From NCBI GenBank assembly GCA_964624685.1, contig CAZUYA010000005.1, forward strand, positions 1 to 54,558: a stretch of 54,558 nt of DNA. Reading direction: 5' to 3'. Each line of letters begins with the position of its first letter. The stretch's first letter is position 1. The DNA comes from an uncultured Ruminococcus sp. (GTDB lineage: Bacteria > Bacillota > Clostridia > Oscillospirales > CAG-272). The position numbers were made by a program, and so were the translations under genes. The notes under the pieces are model-generated. The model did no database searches. It saw only the letters and a list, made by a program, of their open reading frames with translations, and was not told the origin of the DNA. Shown here piece by piece: positions 5,082 through 54,513 of the stretch.

Positions 5082-6524
5082 TTATAGTTGCAGAAGGTCG
5101 CGGAACGGAGTGATGTAAGCTTGCGCTCGTTCGGCATCGGATGCTTCCGCAAAGATGCGCAATAACGGTTCCGTGCCGGAGAAGCGACAAATCACGAATG
5201 AATTGTCGGCAAAATAGACTTTACAGCCGTCCTCATAGTTGACGCGGACGATTTCGGCGGGGAAGTTCGGCAGACGCTTGTCCATCATTAACGTTTTTTG
5301 AATCTCCGACTTGCGTTCTGCGGGGAACGCGAGGTTGGCTTCCACCATTTCAAACCGTCCGAATCGTTTTTCCAATTCGGACAACAGCGCGGACGGAGAT
5401 CCCATGGCACATACCATTTCGATAAAGAGGGAAGCGGCATAGATGGAATCCTTCCCGTGAATGTGTCCACGCACGGTCAGTCCTCCGGAGGATTCCCCAC
5501 CGAGGATCGCATCGTAGCGGTCGATGCCGGCGGAAATATATTTGAATCCGATCGGAACTTCATAGCATCGTTCCCCGAACGATTCGGCAATGCGATCCAA
5601 CATGTGCGTTGTGGCAAGATTCCGAACCACGGGACCGTTCCATCCTTTGTGTGCGTGGAGGTAGTAGTACAAAAGGCAAAGAATTTCGTTGGCGTTGATG
5701 TATCGCCCGTTTTCATCTACCACACCCAATCGGTCACCATCACCGTCAAAGGCGATGCCGAGGTCGTAGTGACCGTCTACCACGCGGTTGCGTAAATCTT
5801 TCAGTCGGCTTTCCGTGGGGGCGGGAATCCCACCTCCGAAATAGGCGTCTTTGTTATCATTGATGAGATCGACGGTACAGCGTAATGATTGCAGGATCAC
5901 CACGAGCGGATAGGTACCGGAGCCGTGCATGGGATCAAACAGAATGCGGAGGGCGCGGCGTTTGATGACGTCTCGATTCAGTTTTTCCAAAATGTGATCG
6001 ATAAAATCGTTAAAAGGAGCATGGAGATAAGTGATCGCTCCTGTTTCTTCCCCGTGTTGGATCTCCATTGTGGGGATGGGTGAGGTGTCTTCGGCAATCA
6101 GTTGTTCCAAACGCGCGGTCGTTTCCACCGGCGCATCTCTTCCCTCATCCACGATCAATTTAATGCCGTTGTAGGAGGACGGATTGTGGCTGGCGGTGAT
6201 TTCCAATCCGTAATGCAACCCCAAATGTTGCACCAAAAACATAATGAGCGGTGTCGGTGTGCTGCGCTCGATCAAAATGACGTGAAATTGCAATGCGGTC
6301 ATGACTTCTGCAATCCAACGGGAGGCAACTTCGGACAAAAAGCGTCGATCGTATCCGATGACGATCGGACGTTCGGTTTTATGCTCTTCCTGCGCCAAAC
6401 GGCAAACGCCGCGCGCAACTTTTTGAATGTTGGATTTGATAAAATCATCGCCGATGATGCCTCGCCAGCCTCCTGTTCCGAAACAGATTGCAGACTCACT
6501 TTTTTGCAATTGTTTTGTATTCAT
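5082..6524 (-). CDS. Phosphoglucomutase/phosphomannomutase family protein (alpha-D-phosphohexomutase)
   Basis: Active-site loop TASHNPSSYNGIKL and metal loop FDGDGDRLG are both present. Confidence 0.9.
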   Translation of the reverse strand: MNTKQLQKSESAICFGTGGWRGIIGDDFIKSNIQKVARGVCRLAQEEHKTERPIVIGYDRRFLSEVASRWIAEVMTALQFHVILIERSTPTPLIMFLVQHLGLHYGLEITASHNPSSYNGIKLIVDEGRDAPVETTARLEQLIAEDTSPIPTMEIQHGEETGAITYLHAPFNDFIDHILEKLNRDVIKRRALRILFDPMHGSGTYPLVVILQSLRCTVDLINDNKDAYFGGGIPAPTESRLKDLRNRVVDGHYDLGIAFDGDGDRLGVVDENGRYINANEILCLLYYYLHAHKGWNGPVVRNLATTHMLDRIAESFGERCYEVPIGFKYISAGIDRYDAILGGESSGGLTVRGHIHGKDSIYAASLFIEMVCAMGSPSALLSELEKRFGRFEMVEANLAFPAERKSEIQKTLMMDKRLPNFPAEIVRVNYEDGCKVYFADNSFVICRFSGTEPLLRIFAEASDAERAQAYITPFRDLLQL

Positions 6525-48037: not shown

Positions 48038-49666
48038 ATGTCGGATACGATGATGAAAGAAAGAAAGCAAAGCGGATTTTTCAATGTATTGCAACGTGTC
48101 GGACGTGCTTTTATGTTGCCGATTGCATTGCTGCCGATTGCCGGATTGCTGTTGGGGATCGGTGCTTCTTTGACCAATACGGCGATGTTGGAGACATACG
48201 GATTGACGAAAATTATGGGAGAAGGGACGATATGGTATTCCGTATTCACTTTGCTTTCGTCTGTCGGAACGGTCATTTTCGATAATCTTCCGATTCTGTT
48301 TGCCATGGGGGTTGCGTTGGGGATGGCTGAACAGGAAAAAGCAACGGCAACTTTATCGGCTGCGATTGCATTTTTTGTGATGCACCAAACCATTCATGCT
48401 TTGCTCTCCATCAGTGGGAAATTGGAACCCGGTGTGATGCAGGAAGGAACCGTCGCCAATGTTGTCGGGATCGAATCTCTGCAAATGGGTGTTTTCGGCG
48501 GTATTCTCGTGGGGCTTGGAGTGGCGTGGCTCAATCAGCGGTTTTATAAGATCCGATTGCCCAATGTGATTTCCTTTTTCGGAGGAACTCGCTTTGTTCC
48601 GATTATTTCAACGGCTGTCTATCTGTTGGTTGGCGTATTGATGTTTTTTATATGGCCGTATCTTCAAACCGGGATTTATGCGTTGGGAGATTTGGTCTTG
48701 CAGTCCGGATATGCGGGAACTTTTATTTACGGATTGATTGAACGGCTTTTGATTCCGTTTGGTCTGCATCACGTTTTTTATTTGCCGTTTTGGCAAACCG
48801 GAGTCGGCGGTTCTGCTCTCATTGACGGTGTGATGGTTTACGGCGCGCAAAATATCTTTTTCGCTGAATTGGCTTCATCGGATGTTACCAAATTTTCGGT
48901 AGAAGCTTGTCGGTTTATGAGCGGAAAGTTTCCGTTGATGATTTTCGGATTGCCGGGTGCGGCATTTGCCATGTATCGTTGTGCCGATCCGTCCAAGAAA
49001 AAAGCTGCGGGGGGATTATTCCTGTCGGCGGCGTTAACATCCATGTTGACGGGAATTACCGAGCCGTTGGAGTTTACTTTTCTGTTTGTGGCACCCGCGC
49101 TGTATGTGATTCATTCCGTATTCGCAGGACTTGCCTATCTGTTGATGCACTTGTTCCAAGTGAGTGTCGGTATGACGTTTTCCGGTGGATTGATCGATTT
49201 GACTTTGTTTGGAATTTTACAGGGGGATGCAAAGACCAATTGGGTGATGATTTTACCAGTCGGCATTGTGTATTTTATTGTTTACTTTTTGTTGTTCGTT
49301 TTTTTGATTCGCAAGCGTAATTATCTTACACCCGGACGTGAAACGGGAGAATCCGATGTCAAACTATATACGCGGTCTGATTATAATCGAAAAAAAGAAA
49401 ATCGGAAGTCTCAAGATGCACATGCGGTTTCAAAAATGATTTTGGAAGGATTGGGCGGCAAGGACAATCTTTCGGGATTGGATTGTTGTGCAACACGGTT
49501 GCGTGTCAGTGTCAAGGATCCCAGTTTGGTGTCTGATGAACGACTCAAGGCAAGCGGTGCCGGCGGCGTGATCCGAAAAGGGATCGGCGTGCAGATCGTT
49601 TACGGACCGCAAGTTTCCGTGATCAAAAGTGAGCTGGAGGAGTATATCCGATCGTTGGATGAATAA
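48038..49666 (+). CDS. PTS EIICB component (glucose/GlcNAc family)
   Basis: A polytopic EIIC followed by an EIIB domain with LDCCATRLRVSVKD. Confidence 0.85.
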   Translation: MSDTMMKERKQSGFFNVLQRVGRAFMLPIALLPIAGLLLGIGASLTNTAMLETYGLTKIMGEGTIWYSVFTLLSSVGTVIFDNLPILFAMGVALGMAEQEKATATLSAAIAFFVMHQTIHALLSISGKLEPGVMQEGTVANVVGIESLQMGVFGGILVGLGVAWLNQRFYKIRLPNVISFFGGTRFVPIISTAVYLLVGVLMFFIWPYLQTGIYALGDLVLQSGYAGTFIYGLIERLLIPFGLHHVFYLPFWQTGVGGSALIDGVMVYGAQNIFFAELASSDVTKFSVEACRFMSGKFPLMIFGLPGAAFAMYRCADPSKKKAAGGLFLSAALTSMLTGITEPLEFTFLFVAPALYVIHSVFAGLAYLLMHLFQVSVGMTFSGGLIDLTLFGILQGDAKTNWVMILPVGIVYFIVYFLLFVFLIRKRNYLTPGRETGESDVKLYTRSDYNRKKENRKSQDAHAVSKMILEGLGGKDNLSGLDCCATRLRVSVKDPSLVSDERLKASGAGGVIRKGIGVQIVYGPQVSVIKSELEEYIRSLDE

Positions 49667-49723: not shown

Positions 49724-50416
49724 TTAGACGGTTATAAGCGAGATGTTTGTTCCAGCATGAGAAGAACGGACAGCCTTTCCGTGTTTGCAAAATTCGATCA
49801 ACGGACATTCCGTGCAGCGGGGTGTCCGCGCGGTACAGGTATCCCGCCCGAGCTGAACGATTCGATGACAAAAATCGGAAATTTCGGCTTGCGGAAGGAG
49901 GGGCGTTAATTGCCGTTCGACTTGCAGAGGATCTTTTAAGGTTTCCGGATACAGACCGAATCGCCCGCAGATGCGAATGCAGTGTGTATCGGCAACGATT
50001 CCGCCTTTTTGATAAACATCGCCCAGTAGCAGATTGGCGACTTTTCTTCCGACACCGGGAATTTTCAATAGGTCTTCCATGGTATCCGGCAAAATACCGT
50101 GGAAGTCGTGCAATAACATCAGGCAGGCGTCTTTTGTGTTTTGTGCTTTGACATGGTATAAGCCGCACGGACGGATGATTCGTTCCAAATCTTCGATGGA
50201 GGCTTCCGCAATCGCTTGCGGTGTCGGGTATGTATCAAATAATTCACGGCAGACCAAATTGACACGTGCGTCGGTACATTGTGCCGATAACCGTCCCATG
50301 ATCAAGAGTTTCCATGGTTCACCGTTCCATTCCAAAGCGCAAACGGCAGATGGATAAACGGTTTTCAATCGTTGGGCGATTTGAAAAAGTTGTTCCGATT
50401 TTTGTTGGTGCGTCAT
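49724..50416 (-). CDS. nth: Endonuclease III (HhH-GPD, Fe-S)
   Basis: HhH motif LLKIPGVGRKVANLLL and Fe-S cluster CTARTPRCTECPLIEFC. The start is re-called to MTHQQK (ATG 50416) with AAAGGAG 6 nt upstream. Confidence 0.9.
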   Translation of the reverse strand: MTHQQKSEQLFQIAQRLKTVYPSAVCALEWNGEPWKLLIMGRLSAQCTDARVNLVCRELFDTYPTPQAIAEASIEDLERIIRPCGLYHVKAQNTKDACLMLLHDFHGILPDTMEDLLKIPGVGRKVANLLLGDVYQKGGIVADTHCIRICGRFGLYPETLKDPLQVERQLTPLLPQAEISDFCHRIVQLGRDTCTARTPRCTECPLIEFCKHGKAVRSSHAGTNISLITV

Positions 50417-50613
50417 AAATGACTCCTTTTTTGTTGACCTTGTGTGGTGGTGCAAGAGTAACCCCTGTCTATATTATAATATAAAAATCGAATTCTGTAA
50501 AGTAAAAATCGAAAAAACGAAGATTTTTTTGATTTGTTTACAGATTTCTATGGATTTTCGCCGTTGGATATGTTACAATGAAGAAAAGGCTGAGAAAGGA
50601 AGTGGATGTGACT

Positions 50614-51288
50614 ATGAAGTTGCTGTTTTTTGATTTGGAGTTTGCGAACAGTCAAATACCGGGTTCTGTTTATTCTTTGGGCTATTTGATTACGGATGAA
50701 TCCTTTCAAATTTTGATGCCTCCGACCGATCTGTGCATTGCACCGGAGTGTATATGGAACGAATATGTGGAAAAAAATATTTTGGCTTATCCGAAGCAGG
50801 AAGTGGAATCGTCGCCGCCTTTCCCGGAACAGTTTGATTTTATTCAGAAATTATTCGGCTATGCGGATCTTGCCATTGGATTTGCGGTCGGGAACGATGT
50901 CAAAGCCTTGCTCCGGGATTGTGAACGGTATGGGTTGCCACCGCTTTCCTATCGTTGGTTTGATGTGGAGAGGTTGTGCGCCAAACAGGAAGAACATCAG
51001 GATGCTCACGGACTGGGTGGTTGTTATTCGGCATGGTGCGGTGAGGAAGCAGATCACCGACATCGAAGCGACGGTGATGCTTATGCGACCATGCGTCTGA
51101 TGGAGGCGATCTGTAAGGCAAAACATGTAACGGCTGACATGATGATACAGGCATATCCTGAATGCGGGGGAGAGACTTCGAGTGGCAATGGCGGGCAGAG
51201 CAGAACGGATACAACGACAAAACAGCAACAAAAGAAACGTCGTTGGTATCATAGAAAGAACAAACAAGAAAAGGAACAAAGAACATGA
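50614..51288 (+). CDS. DEDDh 3'-5' exonuclease (DnaQ/RNase T-like) with a basic C-terminal tail
   Basis: Exo I FFDLEF, Exo II AVGNDVKAL, Exo III HRSDGDAYAT. The tail reads KQQQKKRRWYHRKNKQEKEQRT. Confidence 0.7.
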   Translation: MKLLFFDLEFANSQIPGSVYSLGYLITDESFQILMPPTDLCIAPECIWNEYVEKNILAYPKQEVESSPPFPEQFDFIQKLFGYADLAIGFAVGNDVKALLRDCERYGLPPLSYRWFDVERLCAKQEEHQDAHGLGGCYSAWCGEEADHRHRSDGDAYATMRLMEAICKAKHVTADMMIQAYPECGGETSSGNGGQSRTDTTTKQQQKKRRWYHRKNKQEKEQRT

Positions 51289-51689
51289 AACGAATGATAC
51301 GCGGTATTTGCATCATTGTAACGGCTTTTGGCTTAATGTTATGTTGTTGCGGATGTTCTTCTTCGTTGGAAGGCACCTATCAGCCGGAGGACGAGGATGA
51401 TAAACTGTATATTTTTACAGCGGAAAAAGTCATTTTTGTGAATTTTATCGGAGACGAGTCATATGAATTGCATTTTACATATGAGATCGAAGAAGTCGGT
51501 ACAGATCAAGAAGAGGAAAAAATGATTCTGCATTTCCTTGGGTTATATTATGACGGAAGCGATACGGATATTGCATATTATTTGGACGGATTGTTGTACG
51601 GGTATCGACAAGAGCCGTCCAGCAGCGCAACATTGGTACGCGGCAATGGATATTTGGTGATCAACGGAATCAAATTTATCAAACAGTGA
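51285..51689 (+). CDS. Small putative lipoprotein
   Basis: MKRMIRGICIIVTAFGLMLCCCGCSSS is a signal peptide with a Cys cluster. The start overlaps the exonuclease stop (ATGA). Confidence 0.55.
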   Translation: MKRMIRGICIIVTAFGLMLCCCGCSSSLEGTYQPEDEDDKLYIFTAEKVIFVNFIGDESYELHFTYEIEEVGTDQEEEKMILHFLGLYYDGSDTDIAYYLDGLLYGYRQEPSSSATLVRGNGYLVINGIKFIKQ

Positions 51690-51885
51690 AGCCCTGTTTT
51701 GAAGAAAAGGTAACCGTTCGGGATATTCCAAAGGAAAATCTGCTTTGGAGGAACTTTTGAAAAAAGAATTTTATAAAATTTTCAACAAAATAATAGAATA
51801 TAAAATTGAAAAAGCCGTTAAAAGCAGATTAAATCACCATTTACGGTTTTTGATATAATTGTTAAGCAATAAAAATGCTTGTTTT

Positions 51886-51916
51886 GGTGACAAAATGGTG
51901 ACAGAATTTACTAAAA
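51886..51916 (+). repeat. Left copy of the flanking direct repeat (GGTGACA-N4-GGTGACA...)
   Basis: GGTGACAAAATGGTGACAGAATTTACTAAAA is identical at 27 of 31 positions to 54154-54184. Confidence 0.8.
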
Positions 51917-51940
51917 GTTATAGCACAATAAATAAAAAAA

Positions 51941-51969
51941 TTGATTTTTACATAACTATATGCTATAAT
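51941..51969 (+). promoter_or_regulatory. Sigma-A type promoter proximal to the methyltransferase gene
   Basis: TTGATT (51941-51946), 17 nt, TGC-TATAAT (51964-51969). Confidence 0.6.
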
Positions 51970-52008
51970 ATGATTAGAGAAAATTTTATAAATAGAAATG
52001 AGAGTTTT

Positions 52009-52830
52009 ATGAATACGGAAATTTGTATATTTAATAGCAAAATCAAGTCTTTAAGTATTGAAGACGTGAAGAATAAAATTATAAACGGAGATTGTCTTGA
52101 GGTAATGAAAACTTTACCGGATAAATCTATTGATATTATTATTACATCACCACCATACAATTTGCTCAATTCAACAGGAAATGGCTTAAAGAAAAATACA
52201 AATTGTGGTAAATGGAAAAATGCTGCCATTAAAGATGGTTACAAAGATTATAATGATAATATGCCGTATCCCGAATATATTGAATGGCAAAAAGCTTGTG
52301 TTGCTGAAATGTATAGGCTTATCAAAGATGATGGTGCTATATTTTACAACAATAAAAATAGAGTTCAAGCGGGATTATTACAAGACAGAAGAGAAATCGT
52401 AAAAGATTTTCCTTTAAGACAAATTATAACGTGGAAAAGAAGCGGTGCAATTAATTTTAATGCAGGATATTTCCTGCCCACAACAGAACAAATATACATA
52501 ATCTGTAATAAGGATTTCAAATTAAGAAAAGGTGCTAACAAGTTTACAGATGTTTGGGAAATTAAGCAGGAAATGAATAATCCGCATCCTGCTCCATTCC
52601 CCGAAGAATTGATTGACAGAATTGTAAATAGCACAGAGGGTTCTGTAGTTTTAGATCCTTTTGGTGGCTCTGGAACAACGGCGGTTTCAAGTATAAAAGA
52701 TAATAAGAATTTTATATTGATTGAAAAGTCAATGACATATTGTAAAATGGCAAAAGCGAGAATAGAAGGGAAAGGAGATTGGAGAAATGGCACAGACAAT
52801 ACATCAGAAAATAGAAAGAACTCCGTTTAA
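52009..52830 (+). CDS. Beta-class N4/N6 DNA methyltransferase (SPPY motif, likely m4C)
   Basis: Motif IV IIITSPPYN precedes motif I LDPFGGSGTT, the PF01555-type order. The start is re-called to MNTEICIF because the -10 box at 51964-51969 lies inside the longer ORF. Confidence 0.8.
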   Translation: MNTEICIFNSKIKSLSIEDVKNKIINGDCLEVMKTLPDKSIDIIITSPPYNLLNSTGNGLKKNTNCGKWKNAAIKDGYKDYNDNMPYPEYIEWQKACVAEMYRLIKDDGAIFYNNKNRVQAGLLQDRREIVKDFPLRQIITWKRSGAINFNAGYFLPTTEQIYIICNKDFKLRKGANKFTDVWEIKQEMNNPHPAPFPEELIDRIVNSTEGSVVLDPFGGSGTTAVSSIKDNKNFILIEKSMTYCKMAKARIEGKGDWRNGTDNTSENRKNSV

Positions 52831-53860
52831 GAATATTTATTGGTTTGCTAGACACTTATTAAACACAGATCAATATGGTGCTTTGGGAAAAGCAAAGGAG
52901 ACACAATTACTTGGAGCAATTTCTGTATTAGAGAACATTATGGCACAAACAGAGATAACAGAATGTGAAAAACTTCTTGTTTGTAAAAATACACTATCTA
53001 CAGAAATTAAAGGAATGGTAAAACAAGGTACAAAAAATGCTAACCTTGCCCTTAATTTAATTGATACTCTTGATAAAGAAATAAAAACATTAGAGGATGT
53101 TGTAGTTTTCTGTATTACAATGAAATATATAGTAGCACCTATAAACCAAGCGATTGCCACTGTTCCTTCTGATGATGCAGAATTTTGCAAAAAAGCAGCA
53201 ACAAATATTTTAAGTACATTGGGCGAAGAAAAAGCAGGGCTTGTTATTGAAACATGGGACAATTTGGGGGTTAAGGGTTGTTTAGATGCTGAAAGAACTG
53301 CTGTCGTAGAAGCCTTTACGCATCTCATTGATAATTTATTATCATTAGATATTATAAAACACGATAGTATGGACGATAACCTGATTTTAACTGCATTCGT
53401 ACAAGAGTTTGAAAGAAGATTAGGACAGAAAAGAAAATCAAGGGGAGGTAATTCATTAGAAACAGTTGTTTCATTCCTTTTTGACTACTATAAATTCCCA
53501 TCAACAGAAGCACCAAGTCATTTTGACCAAGATTTAGAAGTTGATAAATGGTTCAAGTGTAAAGATGGATGGAGTGTTGGTATAAGCTGCAAAAGAACAT
53601 TAAGAGAAAGATGGAAGCAGGTAAGTCAGGCAGATAGAGGTACATTATCACATTTTAAAATAAAAGAACTATGGCATATAATAACTTATGATAAGGACTT
53701 GTCTGATGATAAAATTGTACGTTTGGGAGAGCAAGGTCAAATCTTTTATTTAATGGATAGTAGCAACACATATCAAAAGTGTTCTGAACATATTGGAATG
53801 AAAAACTATGTAAGACCTTTATCAAATTTTATTTCGGATATAAGAAGCAATATAAAATAA
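52787..53860 (+). CDS. Putative Type II restriction endonuclease partner (357 aa)
   Basis: It overlaps the methyltransferase 3' end by 44 nt, with GGAGA 8 nt before the ATG. The C-terminal region RKSRGGNSLE...DQDLEVDKWF...VGISCKRTLRERWKQ resembles PD-(D/E)xK REase cores. The N-terminal ~200 aa are unassigned. Confidence 0.55.
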   Translation: MAQTIHQKIERTPFKNIYWFARHLLNTDQYGALGKAKETQLLGAISVLENIMAQTEITECEKLLVCKNTLSTEIKGMVKQGTKNANLALNLIDTLDKEIKTLEDVVVFCITMKYIVAPINQAIATVPSDDAEFCKKAATNILSTLGEEKAGLVIETWDNLGVKGCLDAERTAVVEAFTHLIDNLLSLDIIKHDSMDDNLILTAFVQEFERRLGQKRKSRGGNSLETVVSFLFDYYKFPSTEAPSHFDQDLEVDKWFKCKDGWSVGISCKRTLRERWKQVSQADRGTLSHFKIKELWHIITYDKDLSDDKIVRLGEQGQIFYLMDSSNTYQKCSEHIGMKNYVRPLSNFISDIRSNIK

Positions 53861-53934
53861 GATATTTAATAGCAAGCACAGCAAATGAGTACCCATTTGC
53901 GAAAAATATAATTTGAAATAGCATTTAAGTTAAG

Positions 53935-53972
53935 GGAATTTAAGCCAAAGAACGAGCTTAAATTCCTTTTTT
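53935..53972 (+). terminator. Rho-independent terminator after the R gene
   Basis: GGAATTTAAGC, 10-nt loop, GCTTAAATTCC, then TTTTTTC. Confidence 0.8.
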
Positions 53973-54090
53973 CAAAATTGTATTTAAAGTGGTTTGTTTT
54001 TGTTAATGGTATTATGTTTTCTTTGCCTTAAAAATGAAAAAAGCGTCAAAAATAAACACTAAAACAGCTTGTTTTTTGCGATATACAGTT

Positions 54091-54120
54091 TTATTATTTT
54101 AGTAATTATTATTTTAGTAA
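54091..54120 (+). repeat. Exact tandem duplication of a 15-mer
   Basis: TTATTATTTTAGTAA occurs twice in a row (54091-54105 and 54106-54120). Confidence 0.85.
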
Positions 54121-54153
54121 TAATTTAATAACGTGAAAAAAGGCTTTTGCTGT

Positions 54154-54184
54154 GGTGACAAATTGGTGACAGAGCTTACAAAAA
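54154..54184 (+). repeat. Right copy of the flanking direct repeat
   Basis: GGTGACAAATTGGTGACAGAGCTTACAAAAA has the same two GGTGACA heptamers 11 bp apart. Confidence 0.8.
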
Positions 54185-54348
54185 TAAATTATAAAGGATT
54201 ATATTAAGAAATCAGCCCTATTTCTCAAAACTATGATTTTAGGCTCTTTGCACAAGATAAGATATAAGTTGCCTATATAAAGTTATACTAAATTATTTTC
54301 CAATAAAAAATATTATAAAAATTGTTTGTAAAAAAGTGAAAAAAGGAC

Positions 54349-54377
54349 TTGACAAAGCCCCGAAAACAGTGTATAAT
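54349..54377 (+). promoter_or_regulatory. Perfect-consensus promoter for tRNA-Ser
   Basis: TTGACA (54349-54354), 17 nt, TATAAT (54372-54377). Confidence 0.75.
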
Positions 54378-54421
54378 ATTGATTGTCGTAATCTTGAAAT
54401 TCGGCGATTGCGGCAGTACAC

Positions 54422-54513
54422 GGAGAAGTACTCAAGAGGCCGAAGAGGCGCCCCTGCTAAGGGTGTAGGTCGGTTATCCCGGCGCGAGAGTTCAAATCTC
54501 TCCTTCTCCGCCA
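54422..54513 (+). tRNA. tRNA-Ser (anticodon GCU), class II with a long variable arm, CCA encoded
   Basis: Acceptor GGAGAAG pairs with CTTCTCC. Anticodon stem CGCCC/GGGTG with loop CTGCTAA. T-arm GAGAG-TTCAAAT-CTCTC. Discriminator G followed by CCA. Confidence 0.9.

Follow-up and report, generated by a model that had tools for sequence, protein, structure and literature searches.

The stretch of DNA analysed here (contig CAZUYA010000005.1, 54,558 nt, hereafter the window) is the entire contig C5 of a metagenome-assembled genome (MAG; 81 contigs, 87% completeness) from an uncultured Ruminococcus sp. Near its right-hand end lies a low-GC island that carries a DNA methyltransferase gene, M, followed by the gene for a predicted restriction endonuclease, R (Table 1). 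The island is one operon, made up of a promoter, M, R and a terminator, and it is flanked by a lipoprotein gene, whose open reading frame (ORF) stops at 51689, and by a tRNA-Ser(GCT) gene, 45 nt past which the contig ends. Measured per 300 nt, GC content is 0.23-0.35 over 51700-54400 against 0.45-0.53 in the phosphotransferase system (PTS), nth and exonuclease genes, and it recovers at the tRNA gene; the averages are 0.468 for the contig and 0.463 for the genome. An initial annotation of this DNA had described a low-GC island between the lipoprotein and tRNA-Ser genes, and the measured values bear it out.

Table 1. Features of the restriction-modification island and its right-hand border, in window coordinates
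Feature	Position	Strand	Remarks
Left edge, 8-mer TTATAAAA	51771..51778	+	near-identical metagenome contig diverges at 51769-51778
Direct repeat D1 copy 1, doublet TGGTGACAAAA-TGGTGACAGAA	51871..51916	+	84% identity to copy 2
Promoter-like site TTGATT-17-TATAAT with TG extension	51941..51969	+	~40 nt 5' of M start
M, beta-class SPPY DNA methyltransferase, 273 aa, ORF open from 51859	52009..52830	+	PF01555 1.9e-38
R, predicted 357-aa CCGG-family PD-(D/E)XK restriction endonuclease	52787..53860	+	fold, motifs, profile search
Intrinsic terminator of the M-R operon, 15-bp stem then U6	53932..53972	+	-18.5 kcal/mol, z -3.9
15-mer tandem repeat, 2.3 copies (TRF)	54091..54125	+	D10, 100%; exact at 54091-54120
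Direct repeat D1 copy 2, GGTGACA doublet	54137..54184	+	only two copies in genome
Right edge, 8-mer TTATAAAA	54313..54320	+	metagenome contigs break at 54314, 54318; congener homology resumes 54331
Host tRNA-Ser(GCT) and consensus promoter, outside the island	54349..54513	+	tRNA 54422-54513; Rfam, congener alignment

The two reading frames of the operon, 51859-52830 for M and 52787-53860 for R, overlap by 44 nt, and R has its own Shine-Dalgarno sequence (AAGGAG, 9 nt before the R ATG) within the 3' end of M. An overlap of this form, 41 nt plus the stop codon (41+3 nt), recurs in at least eight of the closer M-R loci, and in distant relatives of the pair a short gap takes its place. No shuffled version of the terminator folds equally well. 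Outside M and R the island holds no ORF of 50 aa or more, its spacers contain short A/T-rich ORFs only, and there is neither a controller (C) protein gene nor a C-box. Down to a length of 20 aa, the non-coding parts of the island contain no ORF resembling a C protein, an integrase or a transposase, in agreement with the initial annotation. An Rfam scan returned the tRNA and nothing else. As for the hallmarks of a transposon, no transposase ORF is present, and the sole terminal inverted repeat (I1) is 28 nt long, 79% matched and composed of A and T only. No tyrosine integrase is encoded in the window; PF00589 genes occur just twice in the assembled genome, on contigs C16 and C57.

M had been recognised from the start as a beta-class SPPY methyltransferase overlapping a 357-aa partner by 44 nt; that description stands, and it is the start of M that needs a closer definition. 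Homologues align from residues 1-3 of the form that begins at ATG 52009, and M is therefore most likely 273 aa long. The frame stays open for a further 150 nt upstream of this likely start (51859-52008). The motif order is that of the beta class (motif IV, target recognition domain, motif I), with TSPPY at residues 46-50 preceding DPFGGSGTT, whose FGGSG occupies residues 227-231 of the 273-aa form. No helix-turn-helix (HTH) domain is present. Among solved structures the best relative is the rotifer enzyme N4CMT (8S9N, E 1.8e-31, over the full length), and the adenine enzyme CcrM comes next (7e-21). The 8S9N structure is that of the N4-cytosine methyltransferase of Adineta vaga (PMC10406627). 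Because the closest solved relative over the full length is an N4-cytosine enzyme, the product of M is predicted to be N4-methylcytosine (m4C). The placement of SPPY motif IV before an FxGxG motif I is common to M and to beta-class m4C enzymes such as rotifer N4CMT and M.PvuII (1BOO); unlike the rotifer enzyme, M is a bacterial restriction-modification (R-M) methylase and has no chromodomain.

R can be divided into an extra helical domain (residues 1 to ~110), which has no convincing match, and an Ecl18kI-like part (residues ~110-357). A database search returned 1,214 homologues, the closest of them 83-87% identical, and every name given to them is 'hypothetical protein'. Among 31 sequences (49-87% identity), the invariant residues are E207 and E209 (QEFERR), D253 (VDKW), S267-C268-K269 and R273-E274-R275. 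A profile built from the alignment of these 31 sequences, when searched against the PDB, matches a single family, that of Ecl18kI (E 0.0026). The QKRKxRAG helix of R is aligned with QSRRSRAG of Ecl18kI, and ISCKRTLRERW with ISAKTTLRERW; K269 falls on the catalytic-lysine stretch SAKTTL, and R273-E-R275 on the Ecl18kI RER. An acidic residue in QEFERR, D253 and S267-C-K269 reproduce the active-site arrangement of the CCGG family (Ecl18kI, PspGI, EcoRII-C, NgoMIV, Cfr10I, Kpn2I and others), in which an acidic residue on a helix precedes D and then (S/T)-x-K. In this family, the R-(D/E)-R triplet four residues past the catalytic lysine reads the CC:GG pairs.

The predicted structure of R leads to the same family. 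With an AlphaFold (AF2) model (pLDDT 89) as the query, a Foldseek search of the PDB ranked Ecl18kI, PspGI and EcoRII first, and the top nine matches all belong to the CCGG family. VIA Z scores for the model are 11.4 for Ecl18kI, 11.2 for PspGI, 9.4/9.1 for EcoRII, 8.8 for Kpn2I and 8.6 for PfoI; BsaWI, AgeI and NgoMIV come next, with the remaining Z values at 6.7, 6.6 and 6.5, and eight family members stand above unrelated folds. All of these VIA matches are confined to residues ~110-357 of the model, and the ESM-Atlas neighbours of R are EcoRII-C domain clusters. The initial annotation had cast the partner of M as a restriction enzyme; judged by fold, motifs and profile, R is a predicted PD-(D/E)XK endonuclease of the CCGG family, nearest to Ecl18kI, PspGI and EcoRII-C.

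Within that family, R is most like Ecl18kI/SsoII (CCNGG; 2FQZ, 2GB7), its best structural match and its only match at the level of sequence. The two share the K-x3-R-E-R-W recognition stretch and the QxRxxRAG helix upstream of it, and a relative of R in Selenomonas caprae, described below, has an SsoII-type methylase as its partner. They differ in several respects: R is ~16% identical to Ecl18kI and carries the extra ~110-aa helical N-terminal domain; the methylase of the island is of the beta-class SPPY kind (m4C-type, as predicted) and has no HTH; and the island genes are co-directional and overlapping, whereas those of Ecl18kI/SsoII are divergent and controlled by the HTH of the methylase. 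With PspGI and the catalytic domain of EcoRII (CCWGG; 3BM3, 1NA6, 3HQG; PF09019), R shares the fold, the active-site layout and the base-flipping subgroup. Unlike EcoRII, R lacks the EcoRII-type N-terminal effector domain, and it falls below the Pfam gathering score.

In C-protein systems such as PvuII, BamHI and Esp1396I, as in the island, methylation must precede restriction. Both M.PvuII and M.BamHI are m4C enzymes. Unlike those systems, the island has no C gene or C-box, and its control would come from the gene order and the embedded start of R. We propose that the promoter drives M and then R, and that the terminator closes the transcript. Given that M lies ahead of R, M would be translated first, and R would be translated from its own AAGGAG and start codon inside M. 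Because there is no C protein, M has no HTH, M is promoter-proximal and R starts inside M, we infer that R is probably held back by gene order and by an embedded, possibly coupled, start codon.

The distribution of the cassette is that of a foreign element. R was found in none of 77 other species of the genus (24 with genomes at least 90% complete); among 400 further genomes drawn from the order, 3 carry it, and plasmid and phage collections contain no match. M lies upstream of R as a unit at 30 of the 36 loci in the genome_contigs collection and at all three loci from the order sample. The unit occurs in MAGs or isolates labelled Christensenellaceae, Selenomonadaceae, Oscillospiraceae, Treponema, Synergistaceae and Deltaproteobacteria, that is, in distant phyla, and the cassette is poorer in GC than its flanks in almost all of the hosts (at locus L043, for example, 0.33 against 0.57-0.61). 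Host-like composition combined with a lack of presence/absence polymorphism among relatives was looked for, and the opposite was seen, in line with the foreign cassette of the initial annotation. The island is very probably a horizontally acquired, self-contained type IIP R-M operon in which M precedes R. For its host it represents a recent gain of defence, specific to the strain or species, beside a tRNA gene.

Nucleotide similarity among the M-R loci is limited to coding DNA (52072-53860), except at locus L049. This locus (5872-6424), in a Clostridia MAG, is a decayed copy in which the promoter region and first M codons (51930-52078) are also kept and run directly into the final third of R (53426-53860). 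The intervening segment, 52078-53426, has been deleted.

The island forms a 2.55-kb insert, with the lipoprotein gene on one side and the tRNA-Ser promoter on the other. Each end lies in a copy of the A/T-rich 8-mer TTATAAAA, the core of a direct repeat (D2). The initial annotation had put the edges at 51689 and 54349. These are correctly the stop of the lipoprotein gene and the beginning of the promoter, but the edges of the island are better placed at ~51770-51778 and 54313-54330. In animal faecal metagenomes, low-depth contigs carry pieces of the island at 98-100% identity, and their matches stop or start at 51769-51778 and 54314-54318, inside TTATAAAA both times. The chance that two edges of 25% GC share an A/T-only 8-mer is estimated at ~0.01-0.04, and for this reason we treat the coincidence as no more than suggestive.

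To the right of the island, the tRNA-Ser promoter is a perfect TTGACA-17-TATAAT (12/12 consensus). A congener, G076, has an orthologous tRNA-Ser(GCT) gene with the same promoter, which can be aligned with the window from 54331 onward. Congeners (L139-L144) carry, in order, the exonuclease gene, (the lipoprotein gene), nth on the minus strand and tRNA-Ser; in the window (49724-51689 onward) the order is nth on the minus strand, exonuclease, lipoprotein, island and tRNA-Ser. Because the neighbourhood is conserved but the gene order differs, the island lies at a rearrangement junction. The same conservation bears on whether the island is an artefact of assembly or binning, with foreign low-GC DNA joined to the end of a contig in the metagenome assembly. 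The fragmentation and incompleteness of the MAG would allow such an error, as would the A/T-rich joins and the position of the island 230 nt from the contig end. However, host-type DNA lies on both sides, and from 54331 the tRNA-Ser gene and its promoter align with those of the congener, beside the same exonuclease and nth genes. The conserved neighbourhood argues against a chimeric contig, and we consider an artefact highly improbable.

An indirect clue to the target site comes from Selenomonas caprae. At locus L042 (4276-7101), a homologue of R that is 50% identical has no m4C methylase upstream; it is divergent from the gene for a 390-aa protein with HTH_3 and C5-methylase parts, and a Vsr gene adjoins. 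Along its entire length, this methylase aligns without gaps, at 65% identity, to that of a 4.2-kb Shigella sonnei plasmid, and the endonuclease of this plasmid is Ecl18kI/SsoII (E 3.6e-203 to 2FQZ). Because a CCNGG-type methylase protects against this member of the R family, CCNGG or a subset of it is the likeliest target. CCGG-family enzymes cut 5' of the first C. We therefore lean, with some reserve, towards CCNGG or a subset such as CCWGG as the predicted target of R, which would be cut 5' of the first C. The neighbours of the S. caprae genes include an NB-ARC/NACHT-like ATPase and a macro-domain protein, and the region looks like a defence island.

A different site of the CCGG family is quite possible, if in our view the less probable outcome: R may recognise CCWGG only, or a hexamer with a CCGG core (TCCGGA, RCCGGY), in which case CCNGG would be wrong. 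Kpn2I (Z 8.8), BsaWI, AgeI and NgoMIV also match the R model, and an SsoII-type methylase would protect any subset of CCNGG as well. The observed/expected (O/E) frequencies in the host genome, 0.78 for CCNGG, 0.64 for CCWGG, 0.62 for CCGG, 0.83 for CCSGG and 1.0-1.2 for the CCGG-core hexamers, point in both directions, since CCWGG and CCGG are somewhat more depleted than CCSGG but the hexamers are not depleted. The three best structural matches (Ecl18kI, PspGI and EcoRII-C) are all 5-bp base-flipping enzymes, and the single sequence-level match in the PDB, to Ecl18kI, likewise speaks against another site. Oligonucleotide avoidance in the host genome singles out no target for the cassette, and the island sequence itself contains zero CCNGG and one CCGG. 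Several other palindromes are extremely depleted across the host genome (O/E 0.02 for GTATAC, 0.04 for TTTAAA, 0.04 for GGCC, 0.05 for CTAG and 0.11 for CTCGAG), which suggests long exposure to other restriction systems.

Several observations weigh against an acquired CCGG-family system with a CCNGG-type target. Against R, the Pfam model EcoRII-C (PF09019) scores 17.7 bits (E 0.0041), short of its gathering threshold of 25, and the identity of R to solved enzymes is only 12-17%. We attribute the low Pfam score to a family that has diverged too far for the curated model. The argument for specificity draws on one locus with a 5-methylcytosine (m5C) partner, and the mild depletion of CCNGG in the host neither supports nor refutes the target. 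Only ~230 nt of host-like sequence separate the island from the contig end. Finally, in the comparison with related genomes that the initial annotation had called for, the tRNA-Ser locus of the congener could be aligned from 54331, and an empty-site allele of the same species was not found, since even in the nearest genomes the flanking proteins share only ~60% identity with those of the window. Among low-depth fragments from public metagenome runs, no contig joins across the island. One faecal contig from run X2 has a match that ends at 49291 (in the PTS EIICB gene), 39 unrelated letters and then a match from 54325; it may derive from a relative with another arrangement, or the match may be due to chance.

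Inside its edges, the island contains a second pair of repeats. The direct repeat D1 (46-48 nt) has a local alignment score of 50 against 26 ± 3.5 in shuffles, and its copies bracket the promoter, M, R and the terminator, 107 nt inside the left edge and 142 nt inside the right. Each copy contains two GGTGACA heptamers 11 nt apart. Neither D1 nor the terminator after R figures in the initial annotation of the island. D1 is absent from the 33 other M-R loci examined (30 of 33 in one search), and neither genome_contigs nor the 77 congeners contain a match to its 26-nt form. When translated, the two copies also give peptides that resemble each other, ..CFGDKMVTEFTK.. and ..CCGDKLVTELTK.. (51859-52008 and 54133-54207), with GDK-M/L-VTE-F/L-TK in common; this likeness may be due to chance, or may reflect a gene-start relic or a leader peptide. 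A coded peptide or an N-terminal extension of M was not adopted as the explanation of D1, as homologous methyltransferases begin where the 273-aa form of M does, and at other loci the doublet lies for the most part in non-coding DNA. The doublet was likewise rejected as an operator for M or R, given its absence from all other M-R loci.

A 20-nt pattern of the doublet, GGTGACAAANTGGTGACAGA, is found at 51886-51905 and 54154-54173 of the window and at other loci (L055-L112). Exact matches in genome_contigs number 20, against 2 for a reversed control; metagenome contigs add 36 matches and viral contigs 2. The hosts are Bacteroidia, Planctomycetes, Verrucomicrobia, Bifidobacteriaceae, Bathyarchaeota and other groups, and the matches lie in DNA of 20-69% GC, where further in-phase copies of GGTGACA, a third or even a fourth, are often present. 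Some loci place the doublet close to an integrase gene: at L098 a tRNA 3' end is followed by 38 nt, the doublet, 96 nt and the integrase; at L099 the doublet lies 67 nt upstream of the integrase gene start; and in the L062 family (four loci) it lies 159 nt past the integrase gene. Others follow VapE-type primase genes or adjoin an AAA_25 gene, and some matches fall inside ordinary genes, such as those for a rhamnosidase and an AlbA_2 ATPase. At most of the metagenome loci no tRNA stands beside the doublet, and a literature search for GGTGACA with integrase returned nothing relevant.

The two non-coding ends of the island resemble one another beyond D1. The right spacer (53974-54320, ~350 nt) and the leader (51775-51993, 220 nt) give a gapped, patchy alignment with many indels, whose score of 136 compares with 89 ± 7 in shuffles (z ~6.6). 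The spacer after R may represent a second leader copy that has degenerated. An exact 15-mer tandem duplication (54091-54120), already noticed in the initial annotation, was recovered by TRF and falls in one insertion of this alignment.

We hypothesize that the cassette, which has no mobility gene, was probably moved by machinery encoded elsewhere. One way in which this could have happened is site-specific recombination, in which an integrase-less cassette would retain the two halves of a lambda-type attachment site, with the TTATAAAA copies as crossover cores and the GGTGACA doublets as candidate arm-type sites that an integrase supplied in trans would use. The tenfold enrichment of the doublet over the reversed control, its 36 metagenome matches, its independent placement next to tyrosine integrases in several families (L098, L099, L062) and after VapE primase genes, and the contig breakpoints inside the shared TTATAAAA at both ends are consistent with such a history. 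However, the window contains no integrase and the two tyrosine recombinases of the genome are on other contigs; the island lies upstream of the tRNA-Ser promoter and not in the tRNA 3' end; a shared A/T-only 8-mer has the chance probability given above, and several doublets are in ordinary genes; and D1 is missing from all 33 other M-R loci examined. We regard site-specific recombination as unlikely, and the doublets may instead be a putative binding site of another protein.

Homologous or illegitimate recombination provides another possible route. D1 and the likeness between the spacers would then represent a duplicated leader or target segment, and recombination between the copies could lead to loss or exchange of M-R. 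For R-M units in Helicobacter, Furuta and Kobayashi have reportedly described 'insertion with long target duplication'. In favour of this route, D1 is a direct repeat found just twice in the genome, the alignment of 51775-51993 with 53974-54320 scores well above shuffles, and the locus is rearranged relative to congeners, in which exonuclease, nth and tRNA-Ser stand together. The L049 copy, which lacks 52078-53426, shows that internal deletions occur. Against it, the D1 copies are only 84% identical, and neither the genus nor genome_contigs contains a single-copy, 'empty' D1. In addition, ~100-150 nt of low-GC DNA lie outside each D1 copy and the left part travels with the island in a metagenome contig, so that D1 is not the host target itself. 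This route, too, seems to us improbable.

A broader version of the site-specific route can be stated, although we hold it to be decidedly speculative and very unlikely. The R-M operon would be a passenger in a small integrase-less cassette, with the doublets as arm-type docking sites, and such defence cassettes would be moved in trans by a widespread integrase family that shares one arm-site word, the doublet, which occurs in bacterial and archaeal phyla beside integrases, primases and tRNA ends.

Type IIP R-M cassettes acquired by horizontal transfer are ordinary elements. Three features of this one deserve mention: R falls in a large branch of the CCGG endonucleases that has gone unannotated and has an additional N-terminal domain, a CCNGG-type target with m4C protection is predicted, and GGTGACA doublets bracket the cassette. 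The family of R numbers more than 1,200 proteins that are named only 'hypothetical' and are captured by no Pfam model. Placement in the CCGG family, a predicted CCNGG-type target and a predicted m4C partner would allow many genomes from gut and rumen to be annotated in concrete terms, and for enzymologists R is a candidate new isoschizomer with an extra N-terminal domain. The lineage has also exchanged its methylase, as R is accompanied by an m4C-type beta-class methylase at 33 loci and by an SsoII-type m5C methylase and Vsr at one. This swap is a natural example of modular R-M evolution.

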